DNA of 14,403 nucleotides from the IMG/VR virus record IMGVR_UViG_3300035703_000645; one strand, 5' to 3'. The notes under the pieces are model-generated. The model saw nothing but the letters and a program-made list of their open reading frames with translations, made no database searches and was not told the DNA's origin. This DNA comes from a virus. Made by a program: the position numbers and the translations under genes. Positions 1,288 through 14,403 of this stretch are shown piece after piece. Within the stretch, counting starts at the first letter, position 1. Each line of letters begins with the position of its first letter.

Positions 1288-2805
1288 CTATCCGACCATG
1301 ATGTCAAGATCCATCGGCGGGCGTGTCGCGTAGTGTGTGACGAGTGCAGTCGCAACCGTCGCGCAGACAGTCGACTGCGAAGCTCTCCGTCCGATAGTCC
1401 AGCCACCATCGCCGAACGGAAGTCTCGCAGCTGAGAGAATCTGTTTCGAGAGTTCTGTCTGTTTCGGATCGTGACGTAATCTCTTCGATGTGATCGCTCC
1501 TAACAGTTCGTCGCAAGCTTGGCCATACAGTGCGCCGTCGATGTCCGAGATCGGAATACCCGCTGGAACTAATCGCGCCGCAATAGCCGAAGCAGTTCTC
1601 TTAGAATAAGCCACTGTCTCGACTGGATACTGTTTCGTATAAGGAGCGATGTCGTTAGCGATCGCTTTATCGTCCAAGTTAATCGGATTATGCCAAGTGT
1701 GAAGAAGCTTTACGAAGAATCGCTCGTCGTCGATCTGTTGGGCGGCGACTAACGCAGCGTCGCGGCGATTCGGACTTACGTCTACACCTAGCCAAGTTGT
1801 CTTCTCTGGATCAAGCTCTAAGCCTTCTTCTCCACACTGATTCCACTCTTCGGCTGGAATAGCTGCCGAAATTGTGGCGACCCATCTACAGAGGACTTCT
1901 GTCTTTACGACGTCTGGCGGATCGTTAAGAACCGCCCGAATGTTATCGATGTGGACTGTATGGCCCAGAGCTGGATTCGCCATTGCCGCACCTTTCCAGA
2001 ATGCGGGAGTGTCGTCGATCTTGTCGTAGTTGCTTGACCATTCATAGTAAGCGATGTCGTCGCCTTTCGCGGCAGACATTCCACGCTCGCGAAGTGCGTT
2101 AAGAACTAAAGAATGCTGGTCTCCCGCATTCGACAGCGTCCAGAGCTGCGGATTTTTCGCCGCCATCATGGTATAGCGCAAGCTGGCCCAAGTGGACTCG
2201 TCTTTTAGTTCGCGGGTCTCGTCCACGAATACGGTCTCGGGCTTGGAAATACCGCGAGCAGCTGAGCCGCCAGCTTTAACCATGTAACGACCGCCGCCGA
2301 AATCGGATTTAAGCTCGATCTCTTCTGAGCCATGCGCCCAGCGGATTCTCTTTACTTGTCTGGCCAGATGTTCGTTCTCTTCGATCATGTTAACGATGTC
2401 TCTAAAAGTTTCCAGTGACGTCGTAAGTCGATGAGCTGTTCCGATCTGTAGACCGTCCTGCCATAAGAAGAGACCAGCTAAAGCTCTGACTTTCATGAGC
2501 GTAGTCTTACCCTGTTGTCTTGCGACGACGACGCAGACCAGAGGCGAGTGCCAGCGGCCGTCTGGCTTGACTCTGTGGGCTTCCATGGCGACCCACTTCT
2601 GCCAAGGTAGAAGCGGAAGCTTGATACTGTCCGCAAAATCGATCAATTCTTGCCCGCGTGACGGTAGATCTACGAGTTTAGAGTGGATTCTTGGAGTCGG
2701 AGAGCCTAGATAGAGTCCTGTAGTTCCCTCTAAAACCGATGTAGGCCGATCTGAGCCAGTTTGAGGCTTCTGGTGTCCTTTTGGGTCTTCTGCGTGGCTA
2801 TTCAT
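1288..2805 (-). CDS. terL: Terminase large subunit
   Basis: 505-aa ORF. It has an LPWQKW motif followed by a Walker A-like ARQQGKTT, then an acidic FVDE (Walker B-like) motif and a C-terminal nuclease-sized domain. It sits in an HNH-TerL-portal arrangement. Confidence 0.9.
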   Translation of the reverse strand: MNSHAEDPKGHQKPQTGSDRPTSVLEGTTGLYLGSPTPRIHSKLVDLPSRGQELIDFADSIKLPLLPWQKWVAMEAHRVKPDGRWHSPLVCVVVARQQGKTTLMKVRALAGLFLWQDGLQIGTAHRLTTSLETFRDIVNMIEENEHLARQVKRIRWAHGSEEIELKSDFGGGRYMVKAGGSAARGISKPETVFVDETRELKDESTWASLRYTMMAAKNPQLWTLSNAGDQHSLVLNALRERGMSAAKGDDIAYYEWSSNYDKIDDTPAFWKGAAMANPALGHTVHIDNIRAVLNDPPDVVKTEVLCRWVATISAAIPAEEWNQCGEEGLELDPEKTTWLGVDVSPNRRDAALVAAQQIDDERFFVKLLHTWHNPINLDDKAIANDIAPYTKQYPVETVAYSKRTASAIAARLVPAGIPISDIDGALYGQACDELLGAITSKRLRHDPKQTELSKQILSAARLPFGDGGWTIGRRASQSTVCATVATALVTHYATRPPMDLDIMVG

Positions 2806-3130
2806 GCTTTATCGAGTCGTTTGGTGGTGAAAGAAGACCTCGGGAGAGAGTGGCGGTGGAACTCCCATCAAAAAAAACACCACCCACCTTTTTCTTCGCA
2901 AGATCCATCTCTTCGGGCAAGCGATCTTGACGACTAAAGTTACATCGCTTACATGCTGCGACTAAGTTATCGGGATCATCTGACCCGCCTCTAGCTACTG
3001 GAATTACATGGTCGCACGTGTTGGCCTCTTGGCCACACCAAAAGCAGATCCAGCCGTCACGATTAAGGATTCGTAGACGTAGTTTCTTCCACTGTGTCGA
3101 GTTGCTCTTACGCTGAGAGTGTAGAGTCAT
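2798..3130 (-). CDS. HNH endonuclease
   Basis: CFWCG...CDHVIPVARGGSDDPDNLVAACKRCNFSRQDR is a classic HNH (beta-beta-alpha-Me) motif with two CxxC pairs. I prefer ATG 3130..3128, which forms a TAATG overlap with the upstream stop. The ORF track instead starts at a TTG at 3163. The 3' end overlaps the terL start by 8 nt. Confidence 0.88.
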   Translation of the reverse strand: MTLHSQRKSNSTQWKKLRLRILNRDGWICFWCGQEANTCDHVIPVARGGSDDPDNLVAACKRCNFSRQDRLPEEMDLAKKKVGGVFFDGSSTATLSRGLLSPPNDSIKHE

Positions 3131-3696
3131 TAGTAATAGTTCCGTTCTTGATGGAATGCCCAAGCTTTACAGCTCGTACCATAACGATTCGTAATGTATT
3201 TAAGAGTAGCGTCTATCTGACGATAAGGGTCTAGATCTCTGTAATGCTTAGATCGCATCTGGCCTAGTCCGAAGTGACTACCGTTCTTCGCTAAGTAGTA
3301 CCATCGAGATTCTTTAGTAATGATTCTGTTAAAGCATTGGAACTCTTTATAATCCAAGATCCGAGAATGAGCGTAGAGCTTTAGATGATCTACTGAGTAA
3401 TTAGCTGCTTGGGCAGAGTTAGACCCTAGCTGAGCGATGAGCGCGATTAGAGATAACAGAAGAGCAGACTTTTTATTTATCGCTTTTTTATCTTTAACTT
3501 TTAAGACTGAAAGAACTTCATTCTGTCTAAATAGTTTCAAGGCTCTCTGTGTCTGTATGCGTCCAGCGTACACCCACCGACCAAGCATTTCGAGCGCGTG
3601 GCGTGTTTGTGTCCTGATAACAGTTTGATAACGATTTGATAACGAAATGTTATAAATGGATCTCCACAGTGTGGATCTAGCCTGTGGATAAGTCAT
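3130..3696 (-). CDS. Secreted or membrane-anchored lytic transglycosylase-like (SLT / lysozyme-like) protein; start codon uncertain
   Basis: A hydrophobic segment SALLLSLIALIAQLGSNSAQA follows a Lys-rich stretch, which looks like a signal peptide or signal anchor. The C-terminal domain has ITKESRWYYLAKNGSHFGLGQM (catalytic E-S and GLxQ) and ends QIDATLKYITNRYGTSCKAWAFHQERNYY, typical of small SLT/IsaA-like transglycosylases. ATG 3696 forms an ATGA overlap with the upstream stop, but the first ~65 codons cover the repeat and DnaA-box region. In-frame alternative starts are ATG 3588, GTG 3573 and TTG 3540. Confidence 0.6.
   Translation of the reverse strand: MTYPQARSTLWRSIYNISLSNRYQTVIRTQTRHALEMLGRWVYAGRIQTQRALKLFRQNEVLSVLKVKDKKAINKKSALLLSLIALIAQLGSNSAQAANYSVDHLKLYAHSRILDYKEFQCFNRIITKESRWYYLAKNGSHFGLGQMRSKHYRDLDPYRQIDATLKYITNRYGTSCKAWAFHQERNYY
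3613..3645. repeat. Three tandem 11-bp units with a TGATAAC core (CCTGATAACAG / TTTGATAACGA / TTTGATAACGA)
   Basis: TGATAAC occurs at 3615, 3626 and 3637, exactly 11 bp (one helical turn) apart. Units 2 and 3 are identical. The period is not a multiple of 3, so this is not a peptide repeat. Confidence 0.85.
3660..3691. promoter_or_regulatory. Cluster of DnaA-box-like 9-mers (one perfect TTATCCACA, two 7/9 matches forming an inverted pair)
   Basis: 3683..3691 tgtggataa is the reverse complement of TTATCCACA (9/9). 3670..3678 tgtggatct is the reverse complement of AGATCCACA (7/9). 3660..3668 ATCTCCACA matches 7/9. The latter two form the palindrome TCCACA-g-TGTGGA, and each contains a GATC. 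Confidence 0.5.
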
Positions 3697-3869
3697 GGCT
3701 TACCGCCCCAGCCGTTACCCTTAAACACGATCCCACCAAGCGAGTAAATGCGCTTCATAGGGACAGTGCAATTCGGACAGTATGGATCTCTGGCCAGTGT
3801 GTCCTCGATTGGACGCTGGACTTCTAGCTCTTTACTACACACTTCGCACCTGTATTCATAGGTCGCCAT
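3693..3869 (-). CDS. FmdB-family (CxxC_CxxC_SSSS) zinc-ribbon protein, 58 aa
   Basis: MATYEYRCEVC...(17)...CPNC...FKGNGWG matches the FmdB-type zinc-ribbon signature (M-x-x-YEY-x-C-x2-C ... C-P-x-C ... f-k-G-x-G-f/w). ATG 3869 is preceded by GGAG 8 nt upstream. The ORF track begins 4 codons earlier at a TTG. Confidence 0.75.
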   Translation of the reverse strand: MATYEYRCEVCSKELEVQRPIEDTLARDPYCPNCTVPMKRIYSLGGIVFKGNGWGGKP

Positions 3870-4017
3870 TAGCTTCTCCAATTAGTGCCACCGTCATAGT
3901 CGAGCAGACGCAGCACTGGATCGTCTTTACATTCTCTGGAAGATTATCTGTAATTACACGAATGAGTTGCTGGGTGTCCTTCTTGCACACTCGGCACTTA
4001 AAGCGCAGCTTGTCCAT
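3856..4017 (-). CDS. Unlisted 53-aa Cys4 zinc-ribbon-like protein (MDKLRFKCRVCKKDTQQLIRVITDNLPENVKTIQCCVCSTMTVALIGEANGDL)
   Basis: I translated this by hand. ATG 4017..4015 is preceded by AAGGGAG with a 5-nt spacer. CxxC at residues 8-11 and CCxC at 35-38. It fills the 116-bp apparent gap between 3881 and 3998 and overlaps both neighbours (20 nt and 14 nt), as other junctions in this genome do. The stop is TGA at 3858..3856. Confidence 0.65.
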   Translation of the reverse strand: MDKLRFKCRVCKKDTQQLIRVITDNLPENVKTIQCCVCSTMTVALIGEANGDL

Positions 4018-4492
4018 AGTTACTCCCTTTTAGATTCTCGATCGGCTGTAAGTTCTTCTGGTCGACCCACCATGTCGGCTGCTTAGAGTTTTTATACTTA
4101 GGCCGCTTGGCCATGGCTACAGGTATCCAGCCCGCTAATCGGTAATTCGGCGATGTACCTACGACGAGAATCGCTACATCTGTCTGGCGATCATTCTCAT
4201 AGACGATAAGCTGACCAGATTCGTAACGCGTCCACTTCACTTCGATAAAGCTTCCGACATCTGCCGTTTTCTTAAACTGTGATGACCTTGGATCGAAGTC
4301 GATGTAACCAAGGTAGCGAGCGACCAAGATCTCGGCGACTATTGATTCGGCCACTTGCGCGACATAATCATGGAAGCCGAGTTGTCTGTCGTATCGACTA
4401 GAGGCGTCTGGGTGTCCTTGGATCTGTGCAATTCGTTCCAGAGCTACAGTGTGGGCTAGGACCTTATCTTCGATCGTGGGCTTTACCTTCAT
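3998..4492 (-). CDS. Putative PD-(D/E)xK-fold nuclease, 164 aa
   Basis: AESIVAEILVARYLGY ... ADVGSFIEVKWT gives an E...D-x(n)-E-x-K arrangement typical of the restriction-endonuclease-like or Hjc-like fold. ATGA overlap with the upstream gene. Confidence 0.45.
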   Translation of the reverse strand: MKVKPTIEDKVLAHTVALERIAQIQGHPDASSRYDRQLGFHDYVAQVAESIVAEILVARYLGYIDFDPRSSQFKKTADVGSFIEVKWTRYESGQLIVYENDRQTDVAILVVGTSPNYRLAGWIPVAMAKRPKYKNSKQPTWWVDQKNLQPIENLKGSNYGQAAL

Positions 4493-4680
4493 CTACAGTC
4501 ACCGCAGAGCCAAGTTAATTTTTCTCCGCCTTGTCCCTTGGTATAACCAAAAGCGTCCAGCTTCTTTAGCTTGGCGCAGCTGTCGCACTGTTCGATTTTA
4601 TACTCGGCTATAACTTCGCCATTCTGTAAAAGCTTGGCTGTCATTGATTGCGGATAGATGATCTCGATTAAGTCGCTCAT
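4489..4680 (-). CDS. Small Cys4 zinc-ribbon protein, 63 aa
   Basis: MSDLIEII...EQCDSC...(25)...LCGDCR has two CxxC pairs. I prefer ATG 4680, which lies 2 nt after the upstream stop (TAAAGATG). The longer form in the ORF track would overlap the upstream gene by 58 nt. Confidence 0.6.
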   Translation of the reverse strand: MSDLIEIIYPQSMTAKLLQNGEVIAEYKIEQCDSCAKLKKLDAFGYTKGQGGEKLTWLCGDCR

Positions 4681-4682
4681 CT

Positions 4683-5345
4683 TTATACCTGTGGCTTCCA
4701 CTTGCCATCGCTGGCTAAGACGTACCAGAGCGGCGTACATTGATCGGCCTTAGCCTTTTCGACGCAGAACCACCCGCCCCAAGCTTTACCAGTCTTAGCT
4801 TCGCCAGTCTTAAAGATTCGATGTCCATGGCCGCACTGTGGAGCTTCTGCCACTAGCTCTCCGCCCAGCTGCTTCTTTATCTCGTCCATCGAAGATCCAA
4901 GGCTGGGGATTCCGCTCTGCTCGGCTTCTTCTGCCGTCTTATAGCTTGGCACTTCGCCGAACTTCTGAGTCCAAGGATCGTAATCGTCCGCTGTTGAGTT
5001 AGCGACCTTCGCGCTAATCGTCTCGACTTTCTCCATGTCCTGACGAGTCGGCCGCTTGTCTGATCCAAGTAGTAAGCCGATAGCTCTACCGATCGCAGAC
5101 GTAACAGTGTCCTCGACGAAGAACTTCTTCATGTTGACGTTATAGGTCGCCACGTTACCGAATGCGTAGTCTGTAGCTGACGGCTGTAGATCCTCGTACT
5201 CGCGGAAGATCTGGGCTTGGATAAGGACGTAACCCTTTTCGGCGTTAAAGTCGATGATGTTCGTCTGAACTCTAGCTGTAGGGTGTGTCAACCATAAGCG
5301 GGCAATTCTGGCCGCTACGTCTTCGTAATTGTCTAAAAAGCTCAT
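4683..5345 (-). CDS. Hypothetical DNA-binding protein: possible Rad52/Sak-like ssDNA-annealing core plus a C-terminal Cys/His-rich domain
   Basis: The N-terminal ~100 aa end in FVEDTVTSAIGRAIGLLLG, which resembles the E-x-x-x-T-x-A-x-G-R-A-L-x-x-x-G signature of small phage Rad52/Sak-type annealases. The C-terminus carries CGHGH...WFC...QC. This is motif-level recognition only. Confidence 0.3.
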   Translation of the reverse strand: MSFLDNYEDVAARIARLWLTHPTARVQTNIIDFNAEKGYVLIQAQIFREYEDLQPSATDYAFGNVATYNVNMKKFFVEDTVTSAIGRAIGLLLGSDKRPTRQDMEKVETISAKVANSTADDYDPWTQKFGEVPSYKTAEEAEQSGIPSLGSSMDEIKKQLGGELVAEAPQCGHGHRIFKTGEAKTGKAWGGWFCVEKAKADQCTPLWYVLASDGKWKPQV

Positions 5346-5500
5346 TAGCGCACGTCCTTAGCTGCGTGACGTGATACGGCTCGACCGCGCTTAAAGCCTT
5401 CTCGCTGGCCTTCTCTGTAACCGACCGAATAGCTCATAGCTGCCCACAGAATGCCCGCTATAGCCATGAGAACGAATAGTCCTAATTCACTTGATGTCAT
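5345..5500 (-). CDS. Small single-pass membrane protein, 51 aa
   Basis: MTSSELGLFVLMAIAGILWAAMSY is followed by a basic tail. ATG 5500 is preceded by GGGAGC with a 5-nt spacer. The extra 19 N-terminal residues in the ORF track cover the hairpin region and are unlikely to be coding. Confidence 0.55.
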   Translation of the reverse strand: MTSSELGLFVLMAIAGILWAAMSYSVGYREGQREGFKRGRAVSRHAAKDVR

Positions 5501-5505
5501 TACTT

Positions 5506-5541
5506 GCTCCCGATACTGGGAGCGACGTTCGCGCTCCCGAT
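5506..5541 (-). promoter_or_regulatory. Two mutually exclusive RNA hairpins that share one CGCUCCC arm; one of them occludes the Shine-Dalgarno sequence of the 51-aa gene
   Basis: Minus-strand RNA reads GGGAGCG(5538..5532)-CGAACGU-CGCUCCC(5524..5518)-AGUAUC-GGGAGC(5511..5506)-AAGUA-AUG(5500). The central arm can pair with the upstream decoy (7 bp) or with the true SD (6 bp). The 9-bp direct repeat GCTCCCGAT occurs at 5506 and 5533. Confidence 0.45.
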
Positions 5542-5570
5542 GTAAAGAGTGAAGCAAGAACGCGTCTAGG

Positions 5571-5990
5571 TCAAGATTCCCGCTTATCTGTCGGCGTGTC
5601 GATTGGTGTTTTCGGCTTGGACTTTAATCCATTACCGGCAAGAACTCCGCCTAGGGATCCAGTTAAGAAGATCGAAAGAGTCTTTAGAAGATCGATAAAG
5701 GCCGCATCGTTTGGAGCTTGCGCTCCGATCGGCTGTGTAACGAAGATAAGCGCGTAAGTAATTCCAAGCGTTACGATCAAAAAGACAGCGGCTAAAGTTG
5801 CGCCGATGATAAGAATAAGAGTCGCGTGGACTTCTTCTGGGCTACGGCGTCGAGCTGGCCTCTGGAGCTTCTTCTCCAAGGACGTCTTTAGTGCAAGTTC
5901 CAGTAGGGACGCATTCTGGCGGCTGACACCGCGGCTCTTTCCAGTTTTCATAATCTTGGCATTCGTAGCGAATCCAGCCCTGATAACCAC
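5571..5990 (-). CDS. Two-TM membrane protein (holin- or antiholin-like); start uncertain (GTG 5990, ATG 5951 or TTG 5879)
   Basis: The C-terminal ~85 aa contain ATLILIIGATLAAVFLIVTLGITYALIFV and LLKTLSIFLTGSLGGVLAGNGL, followed by a charged tail. The N-terminal ~50 codons overlap the lipoprotein ORF out of frame. A TTG 5879 start would give MEKKLQRPARRRSPEE followed by the first TM. Confidence 0.55.
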   Translation of the reverse strand: MVIRAGFATNAKIMKTGKSRGVSRQNASLLELALKTSLEKKLQRPARRRSPEEVHATLILIIGATLAAVFLIVTLGITYALIFVTQPIGAQAPNDAAFIDLLKTLSIFLTGSLGGVLAGNGLKSKPKTPIDTPTDKRES

Positions 5991-8909: not shown

Positions 8910-10477
8910 GCGATTAAGAACGATCCCGCGCCGAGAGTGCCGCGCGCTTGCGACTTATTAACTACATCGATGATAGTGCGAGCCGCCGATTCTGGATCTC
9001 CGACTACGCCCATGTTTACAGTTACGCGAGCGGCTGCATTAGATTCGCGTTCTGCTCGAAGTCTGGCTGTTTCCGCCTTTAGTTCTTCGCGTCGTAAAAT
9101 CGCCGCTTGCATAGCTGGAGAATAAGCAGACAGCGGCGCGCCTGTAAATGTAGGCGATCCAGCATTAGGCGCGAACGTACCACCACCACCACCGAATCCG
9201 CCGCTAATGATTCCACCCGAACCATCTTCACCGCCGAAGACTAAGCCTTGGCTTTCGCTAGCACCCACGAAAGAAGCATTACTAGCACCGAATAATCTAG
9301 TTACTGGGTTATCTTTAATCAGATCGATAACCTTCTTCGCTCCGTTATAAATGCCAGTCAATAGCGACACGAACTTTCCGAAAGCTGTAACCAGTCCAGC
9401 GACTAAAGTTCCAAGTCCTTCTAATGCTGTCTTAAATGATCCAGCGAGAAGCGGGACTAAATACTTCTTAGTAAAGTCCCAGATCTTTTCTAAGAATCCG
9501 TAGAATGGCTCTAGTTCTGTAGAGTTATCCGAAATTGCCTTTTTAATCTTATCGAATGCGATTTTAAGTCCTTCGAGAATTGGCCCGATGATTTTAGTAA
9601 TTTGTGGAATTATTTCTTTATACAGGAACTCCCACCAAGAAGTTAAGATCGGAAGTAGATCGTCGCGAATGACTGTAAAAATCTGACCGAATGCTGGCCC
9701 AAGTGTTTTTCCTAAACCATCGGCGAATCCTTGGATCGCTGGGATTCCCTTATCGACGAACCCAGATAGAAGCGGAGTAAGCGCATCTAAAACGTAAGAA
9801 CCTACGGTCTCTTTTGCTTCATCGAATGCAACAGTAAGACGAGCCATCTTTCCCTGAAAGGTCTCGGCTTGCTTAGAAGCTTGGCCCTCGAATGTTTTAG
9901 AAAGTGCCGCAGCTGCCGCATCAAAGTTTTTGGACTTAATGATGGACTCGTCAATTCCGACGCCAAGCTTCTTTAGTGCGCCTAGATTACCGTCATAAGC
10001 TTTACCGAGAGCTTCGGAGACAGTCTTTAGATCTTTACCTGTTCCCGCTGCGATGTCCAGAGCTAGGGTCTGGAGTTCTTGCGCCTTCTGAACGTCTTTC
10101 GTACTTCTGACTAGTCGATCAAGCGACGGCCTCAAAACGTCGTCCGTGATTCCGTTAGCTAGTGCCGTCTGAGTTATGTAATCCTCTGTAGCTTTTATCT
10201 GCGCTTCTGTTGCGCCTGTAACGTTCTGTAAAGTTGTCGCTAGTTTAGCCTGAGCTGCTTCGTCCTCGATTGCAGACTTAACGCCATCGACGAGAAGAGT
10301 AGCCGCGTACGCCGCAGCTGCCGCTCCCGCTACTGCGAAAGCTGCGCCCGCTTTCTTAGCGAAGCCGCCCATCTTAGATCCGAAGCCTTCGACTTCATTT
10401 TGTGCGCCTTTTACGCCCTTTTTTAATTCGTCAAAGTCGGCGTCAAAAGTAATCTTTATCTTAGGAATGCCAGCCAT
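8906..10477 (-). CDS. Tape measure protein (523 aa)
   Basis: It is the largest tail-module ORF. It is Ala/Leu/Lys-rich and helical, with hydrophobic segments and a Gly-rich tract (GGFGGGGG), and it lies between the chaperone region and the Dit-like gene. Confidence 0.85.
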   Translation of the reverse strand: MAGIPKIKITFDADFDELKKGVKGAQNEVEGFGSKMGGFAKKAGAAFAVAGAAAAAYAATLLVDGVKSAIEDEAAQAKLATTLQNVTGATEAQIKATEDYITQTALANGITDDVLRPSLDRLVRSTKDVQKAQELQTLALDIAAGTGKDLKTVSEALGKAYDGNLGALKKLGVGIDESIIKSKNFDAAAAALSKTFEGQASKQAETFQGKMARLTVAFDEAKETVGSYVLDALTPLLSGFVDKGIPAIQGFADGLGKTLGPAFGQIFTVIRDDLLPILTSWWEFLYKEIIPQITKIIGPILEGLKIAFDKIKKAISDNSTELEPFYGFLEKIWDFTKKYLVPLLAGSFKTALEGLGTLVAGLVTAFGKFVSLLTGIYNGAKKVIDLIKDNPVTRLFGASNASFVGASESQGLVFGGEDGSGGIISGGFGGGGGTFAPNAGSPTFTGAPLSAYSPAMQAAILRREELKAETARLRAERESNAAARVTVNMGVVGDPESAARTIIDVVNKSQARGTLGAGSFLIA

Positions 10478-12861: not shown

Positions 12862-14403
12862 TTACGCCTTGTTATTCTTGAATGCGCCAGCTGCGATCTT
12901 GGTCGCTAGTGCGCCGTAACCGTAGTAACCGACAGTAATCTGGCCAGAAGCGATTACGTCCGCACGAAGACGGAAAGTAGGTCCCTCGTACCAAGTGTAA
13001 GCGTCTGGGTTAACGACTAGAAGAGTTCCGTCGCCATCGCCCGCGTTAGTTGGATCTACGAATAGATCAAGTGCCGCGACTCTTCCGACTAGTGAATCTG
13101 GACGAACTACGCCGCCAGCGTTCATAGGCTGCGAAGCGTTATAGATTGGACGTCCTGAATCGTTTAGAGTCATGATGTTAGCCCACTGGCCAGTCGATGC
13201 GATAAGAGACTTAGCAAATGGACGTGGAAGACCAGCTGTAGCAGCGTAAACAGAAGCAGCTCCACGAGACACAATTCCAAGAAGCTCTGCAGCTGTTGGA
13301 TAAGTCGATGTAGTAGTTCCGTCTGCTGTTGCGCCTGAGATTAGAAGACCGTTTACGTAAGCATTCTCGGCCTTAGCCTTAGCTGCTGCCATGTTACGGA
13401 TTAGCTCCTCGAAGAATGCTGGAGAAGTACGATCCAATAGTTCCACGCTGAAAGTCTGCTGTCCCGCGAACTTCTTAACGTCTACAGTGATGAAAGCTGA
13501 GTTCTGATCGGTCTCGCTTGGAGTTCCTTCTTCGGCTGTTACTGCCACTGTAGGAGCTTGCGTGATCTTAGGGATCTCGAAAGTCATGCCCGCATCTGGA
13601 AGAGTTCCGCGAGAGATCGCGTCGATAGATGGACGGATCGATGTTGAAAGTCCGTTTACTACTTCTGCCATCTGACGAGTAGGCACGAGACCCGCGTTAT
13701 CTGTTGTGTTATCCGCAGCTAGAACGTACTGGCGAGCTTGATCGTCGCCCATCGCTGCGCGGATTGTGTTTTCCACGTACTTAGCAGCTGTGAACTCCAA
13801 GCGTGGCTTAGTGAATGATCCGCCTACGATTGGCTTCGCTGCGGCTGTTGTTGACTGAGCAGCTTCGACCGTCTCGACGGTTTCCGCGTTTGTGACGGTG
13901 TTGTCCACTTCGTCTCCTTCTGTTGTTGTTGGTATTACTTCCTCTTCCACTGTGGAATCGGAAATCTCTTCGGCGATTTCTTCGCCAGTTGTCGCCGCGA
14001 CTTCTGCGACTCTTGCTGATCGTACCGCTGGCTCTGTGACCAAGGCGACGCCCGTTAACTCTCCCGCTAAGACGCGCATAGTGCCGTCCTTTAGCATGAT
14101 GTAATCGTCGACCGCTAGTTCTATCGAGAAGCCGTCGCGTAATCCGCTCATAGCTTCTTCGAGAGCATCTGAACCCGATGTCGTATTAGCGATCTTAAAT
14201 ACAGCATCGATTGAATCTTCGTTTAGTGTCATGTCTAAAGTTTTACCGATTGGACGAGTGCGATCATGTTCCAAGTTAAGTTTTACTGGAGCTGGCTGGA
14301 TTGAACCTTTAGCGAATACGACTTTTCCAGTCGATGCGTTCGCTTCTTCATCGAATGCGACGATGCGCCCGCTAATAGTGCGCGAGTTAGAATCTGCCGC
14401 TGT
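12862..14403 (-). CDS. Prohead protease / HK97-fold major capsid fusion protein (3' portion; the ORF runs through the terminal repeat and starts at 154 or 136 after circularisation; ~516-522 aa in total)
   Basis: The N-terminal ~140 aa contain LEHDRTRPIGK...GLRDGFSIEL...ALVTEPA (S78/U35 prohead-protease motifs). An acidic Thr/Glu/Val-rich linker follows (EEIAEEISDSTVEEEVIPTTTEGDEVDN). The remainder is an HK97-type capsid domain (GLVPTRQ...FEIPKIT...VDVKKFAGQQTFSVELLDRTSPAFFEELI). No separate protease, scaffold or capsid gene exists elsewhere in the genome. Confidence 0.88.
   Translation of the reverse strand, partial: TAADSNSRTISGRIVAFDEEANASTGKVVFAKGSIQPAPVKLNLEHDRTRPIGKTLDMTLNEDSIDAVFKIANTTSGSDALEEAMSGLRDGFSIELAVDDYIMLKDGTMRVLAGELTGVALVTEPAVRSARVAEVAATTGEEIAEEISDSTVEEEVIPTTTEGDEVDNTVTNAETVETVEAAQSTTAAAKPIVGGSFTKPRLEFTAAKYVENTIRAAMGDDQARQYVLAADNTTDNAGLVPTRQMAEVVNGLSTSIRPSIDAISRGTLPDAGMTFEIPKITQAPTVAVTAEEGTPSETDQNSAFITVDVKKFAGQQTFSVELLDRTSPAFFEELIRNMAAAKAKAENAYVNGLLISGATADGTTTSTYPTAAELLGIVSRGAASVYAATAGLPRPFAKSLIASTGQWANIMTLNDSGRPIYNASQPMNAGGVVRPDSLVGRVAALDLFVDPTNAGDGDGTLLVVNPDAYTWYEGPTFRLRADVIASGQITVGYYGYGALATKIAAGAFKNNKA
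14277..14403. repeat. Terminal direct repeat, copy 2 (identical to 1..127)
   Basis: Same 127-bp string as 1..127. Unit genome length is 14,276 bp. Confidence 0.95.

Follow-up and report, generated by a model that had tools for sequence, protein, structure and literature searches.

Escherichia coli DnaA binds almost exclusively pairs of directly repeated boxes, which chromatin immunoprecipitation sequencing (ChIP-seq) places at oriC, datA, the DARS loci and regulated promoters (Stringer, Fitzgerald & Wade 2024, PMC11317965). The sites of this double DnaA box include oriC R4/C1, datA, DARS1/2 and the nrdA, polA, purH and dnaA promoters; the element consists of direct 9-mer repeats 2-3 bp apart, at least one of them consensus and often with the same flanks (gTTATCCACAg), lies in intergenic DNA and is bound as a DnaA dimer. 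Among phages, conserved pairs of DnaA boxes have been described in the injection-stop region of 25 T5-like phages (Davison 2020 preprint, 10.1101/866236). A comparable element occurs in the IMG/VR virus record IMGVR_UViG_3300035703_000645, a stretch of 14,403 nucleotides referred to here as the window, where a perfect DnaA box and a degenerate second one occupy the first codons of an open reading frame (ORF) for an SLT-like transglycosylase and represent a tandem pair conserved throughout a family of small phages.

Theta origins of the iteron type that use DnaA, such as P1 oriR, pSC101, F oriS and RK2 oriV, carry boxes beside three or four phased repeats and AT-rich DNA; in the P1 oriR class the iterons are 17-22 bp long, and the plasmid Rep protein that binds them is the product of an adjacent gene. 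An origin can also lie within coding sequence, as lambda ori does inside gene O. The window shares with the iteron origins the box or boxes, the phased repeats and an AT-rich stretch, but its repeats measure 11 bp, most relatives have no repeats, and neither the window nor the family's accessory gene pool yielded a Rep-like, helicase or primase family. It resembles lambda ori in that cis elements are tolerated within an ORF, which here encodes a cell-wall hydrolase rather than an initiator. In bacterial chromosomes, the basal unwinding system (BUS) combines tandem DnaA boxes, a GC gap, AT-rich DNA and the DnaA-trios (3'-NAN-5', consensus GAT) that define it (PMC8287927). Like the BUS, the phage site has tandem boxes of which the upstream one is nearest consensus, and in the window it has AT-rich, easily melted DNA on the CACA side, a possible counterpart of the unwinding element; unlike the BUS, the site lacks three or more trios within 16 bp and a dnaA/dnaN neighbourhood, and its GC-skew extreme has the wrong sign. 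The element thus falls outside the oriC/BUS class for want of trios, and outside the iteron-Rep class for want of a Rep gene.

A conserved pair of DnaA boxes at a gene boundary

Read on the minus strand from 3696, the site runs ATGAC-TTATCCACA-GGCT-AGATCCACA-C-TGTGGAGAT-CCATTTATAACATTT-CGTTATCAAAT-CGTTATCAAAC-TGTTATCAGGA (Table 1). GTTATC is common to the 11-bp repeats and to the 11-mer that contains the perfect box; the repeats lie on the CACA side of that box and are out of helical phase with it (49 bp start to start). On the plus strand their TGATAAC cores stand at 3615, 3626 and 3637, exactly 11 bp apart, and adjoin an AT-rich stretch and an inverted TTATAAC. Chance expectation was simulated with 1500 first-order Markov sequences that match the window in composition. 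One perfect box or more appeared with P = 0.047, and a perfect box accompanied within 35 bp by at least two others of at most two mismatches with P = 0.0007; three identical 7-mers spaced exactly 11 bp apart turned up in none (0/1500). A box scan against shuffled sequences shows mild enrichment of boxes with at most one mismatch across the window (5 against 1.6 expected; 5 of 200 shuffles reached 5). On the Markov and shuffle results, the box cluster is counted as non-random within the window.

An earlier description of this DNA, made without database searches and called here the sequence-only reading, had noted the perfect box, an inverted pair of 7/9 boxes each with a GATC, three TGATAAC units one helical turn apart, a clustering beyond chance and an overlap with the first codons of the SLT-like ORF. 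All of these hold in the window, where the ATG of that ORF overlaps the upstream stop codon. Two of them do not extend to the family: the repeat units are found at few loci, as described next, and the GATCs are not conserved in relatives and are incidental. A role of the GATCs in Dam-SeqA control was rejected, since even iteron-type relatives do not conserve them.

Relatives were gathered by protein similarity, and the 330 nt upstream of their conserved transglycosylase domain yielded 78 distinct sequences. In 76 of these the tandem pair GTTATCCACAG-NN-GTTATCCACAG stands directly after the stop codon of the upstream gene, between it and the start of the transglycosylase gene, and it stays there although relatives differ in the upstream gene. 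Position by position, the profile reads T, T, A (G in 4), T, N (C in 64, G in 6, A in 5, T in 1), C (A in 9), A, C, A, flanked by G; in the homologues of box A from these 76 relatives, T1, T2, T4, A7, C8 and A9 are invariant and position 5 is free. By this profile the family boxes follow the classical relaxed DnaA rule TT(A/G)TNCACA, and the rule TT(A/T/G)TNCACA is fitted by 67 of the 76 box A copies and by most copies of box B. Relatives have TTATCCACA (41/76) or TTATNCACA at the position of box B, which is degenerate only in genomes with an iteron cassette, that is, in the window and 11 relatives (12 of 278 loci). What the window shows as a cluster is the canonical tandem pair of the family in decayed form. 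Other relatives have an inverted TGTGGGACAC-GCCCAAG at a place comparable to that of the window's inverted 7/9 box. Elsewhere in 516 kb of the relatives' loci, box-like relaxed 9-mers occur at chance level (34 against 33 expected).

The coding status of the pair differs between relatives. About 75 of the 78 have an SLT frame that runs uninterrupted across the pair, in most cases from an ATG or GTG overlapping the stop codon upstream, and plain non-coding DNA was rejected for the box region on this account. Among relatives, however, the pair falls in either of two reading frames (MKLST... or MSYPQ...), lies in intergenic DNA in a distant clade (TAA-ata-GTTATCCACAGAAGTTATCCACAG-GAGGT-N5-ATG, a stop-pair-GGAGG-ATG layout), and sits inside a 3' coding end in some others, so that conservation at the protein level was rejected as its cause. 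Comparing the boxes with the encoded peptide in related genomes, a check that the sequence-only reading had proposed, favours the boxes, which are kept across two frames, and not the 11-bp repeats, which are limited to a small subclade.

An exact-pattern scan of IMG/VR gave at least 120 contigs, a sampling that favours the motif and was offset by two protein-based samples; counts from such scans, which draw on at most 80 or 120 listed matches, are lower bounds, and IMG/VR contigs are redundant. About 110 of the 120 listed pattern matches are small phages with SLT, HNH and the p220 protein described below, and their TerL is 30-37% identical to that of the window. When the distant clade was resampled by protein alone, the pair was present at no more than one mismatch in 71 of 80 loci, with box B perfect in all 48 distinct sequences; exceptions in this clade are one 3-bp spacing, five loci with a single perfect box, inverted, and two loci without any box. 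At the level of comparative sequence evidence, these observations show that the pair is an element under strong DNA-level selection, with DnaA-box specificity and a fixed position.

Table 1. Coordinates of the box site, its surroundings and neighbouring genes in the window
Feature	Position	Strand	Remarks
Box A, perfect DnaA box TTATCCACA (11-mer CTTATCCACAG)	3683..3691	-	codons 3-5 of the SLT-like ORF
Box B, degenerate second box AGATCCACA (7/9)	3670..3678	-	13 bp start to start from box A
Inverted 7/9 box ATCTCCACA	3660..3668	+	forms TCCACA-C-TGTGGA with box B
Inverted half-repeat TTATAAC	3649..3655	-	ahead of the direct repeats
Three 11-bp direct repeats CGTTATCAAAT, CGTTATCAAAC, TGTTATCAGGA	3612..3644	-	
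Conserved DNA motif GGTGGGTGTACGCTGGACGCATACA	3554..3578	-	includes TACGCT (TAnnnT, -10-like hexamer)
Physical genome ends (cos)	2841..2856		from contig starts and ends of relatives
SLT-like secreted/anchored transglycosylase	3130..3696	-	NF052397, 9.6e-18
FmdB-family zinc-ribbon protein (upstream gene)	3693..3881	-	stop overlaps the SLT ATG at 3696 (ATGA)
164-amino-acid protein, D...EVK motif	3998..4492	-	phrog_18407 (unknown function)
p220, annealing-protein-like, C-terminal zinc ribbon	4683..5345	-	

The same module in chromosomes and other phages

The sequence GTTATCCACAG is that of E. coli oriC R1 and R4 including their flanks (100% identity, each once per chromosome, about 185 bp apart). 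The 25-mer AGTTATCCACAGNNGTTATCCACAG is present in at least 120 genome records, and 111 of the 120 listed belong to Actinomycetota of about 70% G+C. By our own estimate, chance would give about 0.02 matches to its 23 specified bases in the 596-Gb collection. The chromosomal copies (loci L278-L397, for example L286, L289, L316, L317 and L338) are intergenic, lying between gyrB and gyrA, beside crgA, beside parS/parB, or between pheA and serS. Other DnaA-like boxes are often found near them, and in complete genomes the 25-mers are close to the replication origin. To our knowledge, chromosomal double DnaA boxes with a 4-bp spacing are an uncharacterised class.

The pair is also carried by unrelated phage contigs that lack p220, SLT and HNH. 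An identical pair is found in the T5-like Providencia phage PR1 (KY363465, L479) at 9510-9532, within the 10.5-kb terminal repeat and in the injection-stop region, with a copy in the other terminal repeat. Microbacterium phage Pepe25 (L478) has AATTCCACAGAGTTATCCACAGG 256 bp from its left end (256-277; also 613-621), within a non-coding terminus of 890 bp. An unrelated 22-kb phage contig (L223, IMGVR_UViG_3300043009_000020, 12862-13347) has at its extreme end an array of 23 perfect boxes, 22 copies of TTATCCACA on one strand and one inverted, in about 480 bp, which could be a datA-like DnaA sink or an origin. Near matches are seen in Streptomyces (~133 kb), Arthrobacter and Rhodococcus phages.

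The occurrence of the same module in chromosomes and in unrelated phages leaves a universal host protein as the only plausible common partner. Together with the conservation in two frames and in intergenic DNA and the DnaA-like substitutions, this makes it very probable that host DnaA binds the pair. If DnaA is the common partner, the use of the host initiator by phages would extend far beyond the examples of lambda, P1 and T5.

Compared with the double box of E. coli, the phage element shares the direct repeats of the 9-mer, the consensus copy, often the flanks, and the intergenic setting. It differs in its spacing of 4 bp (13 bp start to start) instead of 2-3 bp, in that both boxes are usually perfect in the family, and in being part of a phage. 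The two boxes of the family pair lie in direct orientation, with the window's second box matching at 7/9. By sequence and orientation the element can be classed as a double DnaA box, but not by the 2-3 bp spacing. Given the 4-bp form in Actinomycetota and in PR1, the spacing rule may differ between DnaA orthologues, and the 4-bp-spaced double box may be a distinct class of high-affinity DnaA site. The nearest phage relative of the element is the T5 injection-stop pair: the PR1 sequence TTATCCACAGAAGTTATCCACAG is literally identical, the variants TTATCAACA, TTATTAACA and TTATGCACA are tolerated in both, and both combine family-wide conservation and drifting flanks with a position near the end. 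T5-like phages, however, have about eight boxes in four pairs, placed in large inverted repeats within a 10-kb terminal repeat, and encode their own replication machinery, whereas here a single pair stands at a gene boundary of a 14-kb cos phage without replication genes. Within the searched literature, three things are newly linked by this comparison, namely the T5 injection-stop pairs, the end-proximal boxes of cultured actinophages and the chromosomal 25-mer (gyrA, crgA, parS, serS). The searchable literature yielded no paper on DnaA boxes in actinophages or minimal tailed phages.

A proposed role in replication initiation and rival uses of the pair

The element bears on the question of how the smallest tailed phages, which have no replication genes, copy their DNA. 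No other conserved site of these genomes is predicted to bind a replication protein of the host; the element is kept across deep protein divergence and offers a handle of two 9-mers and about 250 bp. Profile scans of the window ORFs in 3130-5990 against Pfam, PHROG and NCBIfam detected no initiator, helicase, loader, primase or polymerase; the sequence-only reading, too, had recognised no polymerase, primase, helicase or initiator. Ten selected accessory families from 185 loci likewise gave no initiator, helicase, primase or polymerase, the other families having been judged by eye. Because the family encodes none of these functions, replication initiation is the most likely use of the pair.

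The host-DnaA-dependent origin suggested by the sequence-only reading is partly supported. What stands is an element conserved at the DNA level that is almost certainly a DnaA site, while the lack of trios, the skew maximum and the box-less relatives discussed below count against an origin. We tentatively propose that host DnaA docks at the pair to initiate replication on the cassette next to it, after which p220 would drive recombination-dependent amplification. The genome would first circularise at cos, and DnaA at the pair would then nucleate on the adjacent cis region, which here comprises the GTTATCA repeats of 11 bp together with the genome's least stable DNA, and in most relatives further boxes and a hairpin cassette. 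Hypothetically, DnaA might help to open the DNA or to load the host helicase, and p220 might support recombination-driven amplification to concatemers for cos packaging.

The physical properties of the window can be set beside this proposal. The least stable 100 bp of duplex in the genome lies at 3446..3546 (z = 3.9), 140-240 bp downstream of the boxes, and corresponds to the A-rich N-region of the signal peptide, while the 50-bp stretch 3614-3664 is the fifth least stable (z = 2.9). Neither stretch is conserved in relatives with the hairpin cassette. When the box is read as TTATCCACA, the AT-rich repeats are on its 3' side, an arrangement like that of E. coli R1, which faces the unwinding element. 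Three or more phased repeats beside the box or boxes, as in iteron origins, are confined to the iteron loci. Origins are often swappable cassettes, like the cis region of this family.

Several observations weigh against an origin. Inspection by eye found no DnaA-trios ((NTN)>=3 on the box strand within 16 bp) in the window, and none consistently in relatives. The GC-skew check advised by the sequence-only reading gave the opposite sign, since in 23 genomes the detrended cumulative skew has a maximum, not a minimum, 0-0.21 genome lengths downstream of the pair; this maximum is most often at cos, and the test is weak for a 14-kb phage transcribed one way. Of 80 sampled relatives, two lack boxes entirely and five have a single one in inverted orientation. 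In nearly all copies the 9-mers are 4 bp apart (G-NN-G), a distance at which E. coli purH no longer bound DnaA (PMC11317965). The origins of T5 have been reported away from its injection-stop pairs (10.1101/866236). Unrelated phage contigs of 39-115 kb that carry the pair probably have replication genes of their own. In addition, the two to four boxes present here are far fewer than in actinobacterial oriC.

The alternative with most to be said for it, unlikely as it is, is a DnaA-dependent transcription switch. At the entry to the SLT-HNH-cos-TerL-portal-capsid series, the pair would gate read-through or a nearby promoter and so tie late expression and packaging to the availability of DnaA, which would fall as phage copies titrate it. 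This would account for the exact placement between the stop codon and the Shine-Dalgarno sequence and ATG in hundreds of genomes. It also agrees with the absence of promoter room between the left genome end and TerL: with TerL beginning 37 nt from that end, transcription of the late genes has to come from upstream and cross the joined cos. Complexes of DnaA with its box are said to block RNA polymerase, an observation ascribed to Schaefer and Messer. The Actinomycetota copies lie in intergenic DNA beside gyrA, crgA and serS, the -10-like TACGCT motif is conserved downstream of the pair, and most E. coli double boxes outside oriC, datA and DARS are at the regulated promoters nrdA, polA, purH and dnaA (PMC11317965). 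A promoter scan of 3000-4600, however, predicts zero sigma-70-type sites, the CTTGAC-N7-8-TACGCT spacing is non-canonical for a promoter, and the inverted-box variants speak against a strictly orientation-dependent roadblock. Nor would a switch explain the other DNA conserved independently of frame (about 200 bp), the cassettes of iteron and hairpin type, or the phage's mode of replication.

Four further explanations have less to recommend them. It is rather improbable that the boxes act as an end-proximal tether or entry control, as proposed for T5, in which membrane-associated DnaA would pause, anchor or place the incoming genome. The boxes are 650-900 bp from the right end, probably the one that is packaged last and injected first, and such a role would suit the identical pair CTTATCCACAGAAGTTATCCACAG in the injection-stop region of the PR1 terminal repeat, the variants TTATCAACA and TTATTAACA shared with T5-like pairs (Davison), the position of AATTCCACAGAGTTATCCACAGG in Pepe25, and the pair or array found 0.35-1.2 kb from the contig end in the unrelated contigs L207, L223 and L237. 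The T5 model is itself a proposal, however, and two-step injection is not known for small cos phages; the distance to the end is simply explained by the two conserved genes (SLT, HNH) in between, the orientation toward the near end is inconsistent across unrelated contigs, the polarity of entry is an assumption, and there is one pair only, without large inverted repeats. A DnaA sink that halts host initiation by titration from multiplying phage genomes, in the manner of datA, is very unlikely: although the sites are of the high-affinity consensus type, datA and DARS are built on double boxes (PMC11317965) and the array in L223 looks sink-like, a sink could do without a set place and orientation at a gene boundary, with two boxes per genome it would be weak, and the flanking conserved cis elements would have no explanation. 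There is similarly little chance that a phage protein (p220, one of the zinc-ribbon proteins, HNH or terminase) binds the boxes, the 11-bp repeats or both, and that the likeness to DnaA boxes is fortuitous. p220 does co-occur with the pair in 185 of 185 family loci, the repeats resemble the iterons of initiators or regulators, and we know of no host factor for GTTATCA; against this, the same 25-mer is present in bacterial chromosomes and in phages without p220, SLT and HNH, the substitution pattern matches the tolerance of DnaA, and a search for a gene specific to iteron-bearing genomes revealed none that tracks the cassette. For the repeats taken alone, a phage protein may yet be the partner. 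A terminase recognition site of the cosB or pac type, which the sequence-only reading had entertained because of the HNH and TerL genes downstream and the lack of an evident small terminase gene in the window, is extremely improbable, as the motif is also found in bacterial chromosomes and a defined cos (2841/2856) lies about 830 bp downstream, two genes away; the mapped genome ends refute a packaging site at the boxes.

Taken further, the replication proposal leads to a wider picture that we put forward with still more reserve. A large clade of minimal (14-16 kb) freshwater tailed phages without an initiator of their own might replicate as host-initiator-dependent 'mini-chromosomes', and end-proximal double boxes might be a general, as yet unrecognised phage device for engaging host DnaA. 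Such a genome would carry a copy of its hosts' origin-proximal double box where a lysis-related gene is tolerant, at the 5' end, with exchangeable cassettes for unwinding or priming (either 11-bp repeats or covarying hairpins) after it.

Exchangeable cassettes, genome ends and neighbouring genes

The iteron cassette is made up of box A, a decayed box B, the inverted TTATAAC and three or four 11-bp GTTAT(C/A)A repeats, and TTATAAC-(A/G)AAA-CGTTATCAAAT is conserved in 12 of 12 iteron loci. The closest overall relative of the window (L256, IMGVR_UViG_3300042449_000013) has a TerL that is 94% and a p220 that is 93% identical, and most of its proteins are 90-98% identical, p83 and the tape measure being more diverged. 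Its cis region is nevertheless wholly different, with the canonical pair, extra boxes and a hairpin where the window has one good box and the 11-bp repeats. This difference marks the region from the upstream stop codon to the signal peptide as a recombining module.

The conserved motif at 3578..3554 (GTGTACGCTGGACGCATACA) is 96-100% identical in relatives that are otherwise unalignable, and is read in two frames (VYAGRIQ and CTLDAYN). The arrangement CTTGAC-N7-8-(G)GTACGCT(GGACGCATACA) is conserved across cassettes, with TTGAC too near TACGCT to be a -35 element. In hairpin-type relatives, TACGCT is part of the outer hairpin stem. A further motif, CTCTGA(C/G)CAG(C/G)ACTT(A/T)TAC, co-occurs with the pair in the family and in the unrelated phage contigs L207, L237 and L254.

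The nested hairpin of relatives (L118, L256, L203), absent from the window, lies about 90-170 nt downstream of the pair within the 5' coding part of the transglycosylase gene. It consists of GCGAGC-CGC-TGAG-GCG-GATA-GCTCGC and an outer stem, and the distant clade has two adjacent hairpins. Compensatory changes include GAGC/GCTC, GACC/GGTC, GGGC/GCCC and AAGC/GCTT, with 7 of 13 predicted pairs covarying, and the hairpin is kept even in two relatives without DnaA boxes. An Rfam scan of the window and three relatives gave nothing credible, and the hairpin has no Rfam match; an RNA element and a signal for single-strand DNA priming are both possible readings. In the window itself, folding of 3520-3700 on the minus strand gave no excess of RNA structure (z = +0.95).

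The first 127 nt of the window are identical to its last 127 nt (1-127 and 14277-14403, an exact direct repeat), which indicates a circular assembly with a k-mer overlap and a true genome of 14,276 bp. The physical ends can be located from contigs of relatives, 27 of which start at window position 2841, 37 nt before the TerL ATG, and 12 of which end at position 2856. The 14 nt in between (CGCCACTCTCTCCC, coding strand) are missing from both contig ends, which is what the loss of a 3' cohesive overhang in library preparation would produce. The HNH ORF (2798-3163; TerL, 1288-2805) runs across cos, and its last ~19 codons therefore exist only in the circular or concatemeric form.

Every gene of the window is on the minus strand, in the order prohead protease-capsid, tail genes, tape measure, CHAP lysin, membrane proteins, p220, an 83-amino-acid protein, the 164-amino-acid protein and the FmdB-type zinc ribbon, followed by the box site and then by the SLT-like transglycosylase, HNH, TerL and portal. 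The protease-capsid ORF (12862-14274) seemingly lacks its N-terminal part (positions 1-56 of the Peptidase_S78 profile), probably through running off the end of the window. Megablast of the whole window found no match and no close relative among GenBank phages, and the nearest cultured TerL proteins, at 28-30% identity, are those of actinophages; IMG/VR holds hundreds of freshwater relatives, mostly of 14-16 kb. Host assignment from bins of metagenome-assembled genomes was rejected as unreliable, the family contigs being short contigs in Burkholderiaceae and Pseudomonadales bins. The TerL relatives, the Gram-positive type of the transglycosylase domain and the chromosomal distribution of the motif suggest that the host is probably an actinobacterium.

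The SLT-like protein has a domain of Gram-positive type that resembles the C-terminal domain of aggregation-promoting factor (amino acids 118-188), and the cis elements sit in the tolerant N-terminal ~75 codons of its gene. p220 is present in 185 of 185 family loci and is the sole universally conserved non-structural protein of the family. Its N-terminal domain (125 amino acids), modelled by AlphaFold2 with a predicted local distance difference test (pLDDT) score of 82, has Foldseek matches in BFVD, a set of viral models, to ERF (6e-5), SAK3 (8.5e-4) and Rad52/59/22 (5e-3), and its C-terminal zinc ribbon is related to mycobacteriophage L5 gp49 (PF25690). Foldseek against PDB gave no significant match, only non-significant dsRBD-like ones, full-length p220 modelled from a shallow alignment reached a pLDDT of 37, and PDB sequence and profile searches were empty for both p220 and the 164-amino-acid protein. 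p220 may be described as annealing-protein-like, since a motif-based guess that it is Rad52-like is backed only by the matches to viral models. The 164-amino-acid protein occurs in 111 of 185 loci and is a possible PD-(D/E)xK nuclease, and the accessory pool upstream of the pair comprises methylases, a kinase-like ATPase, a metallophosphatase and DUF6378.

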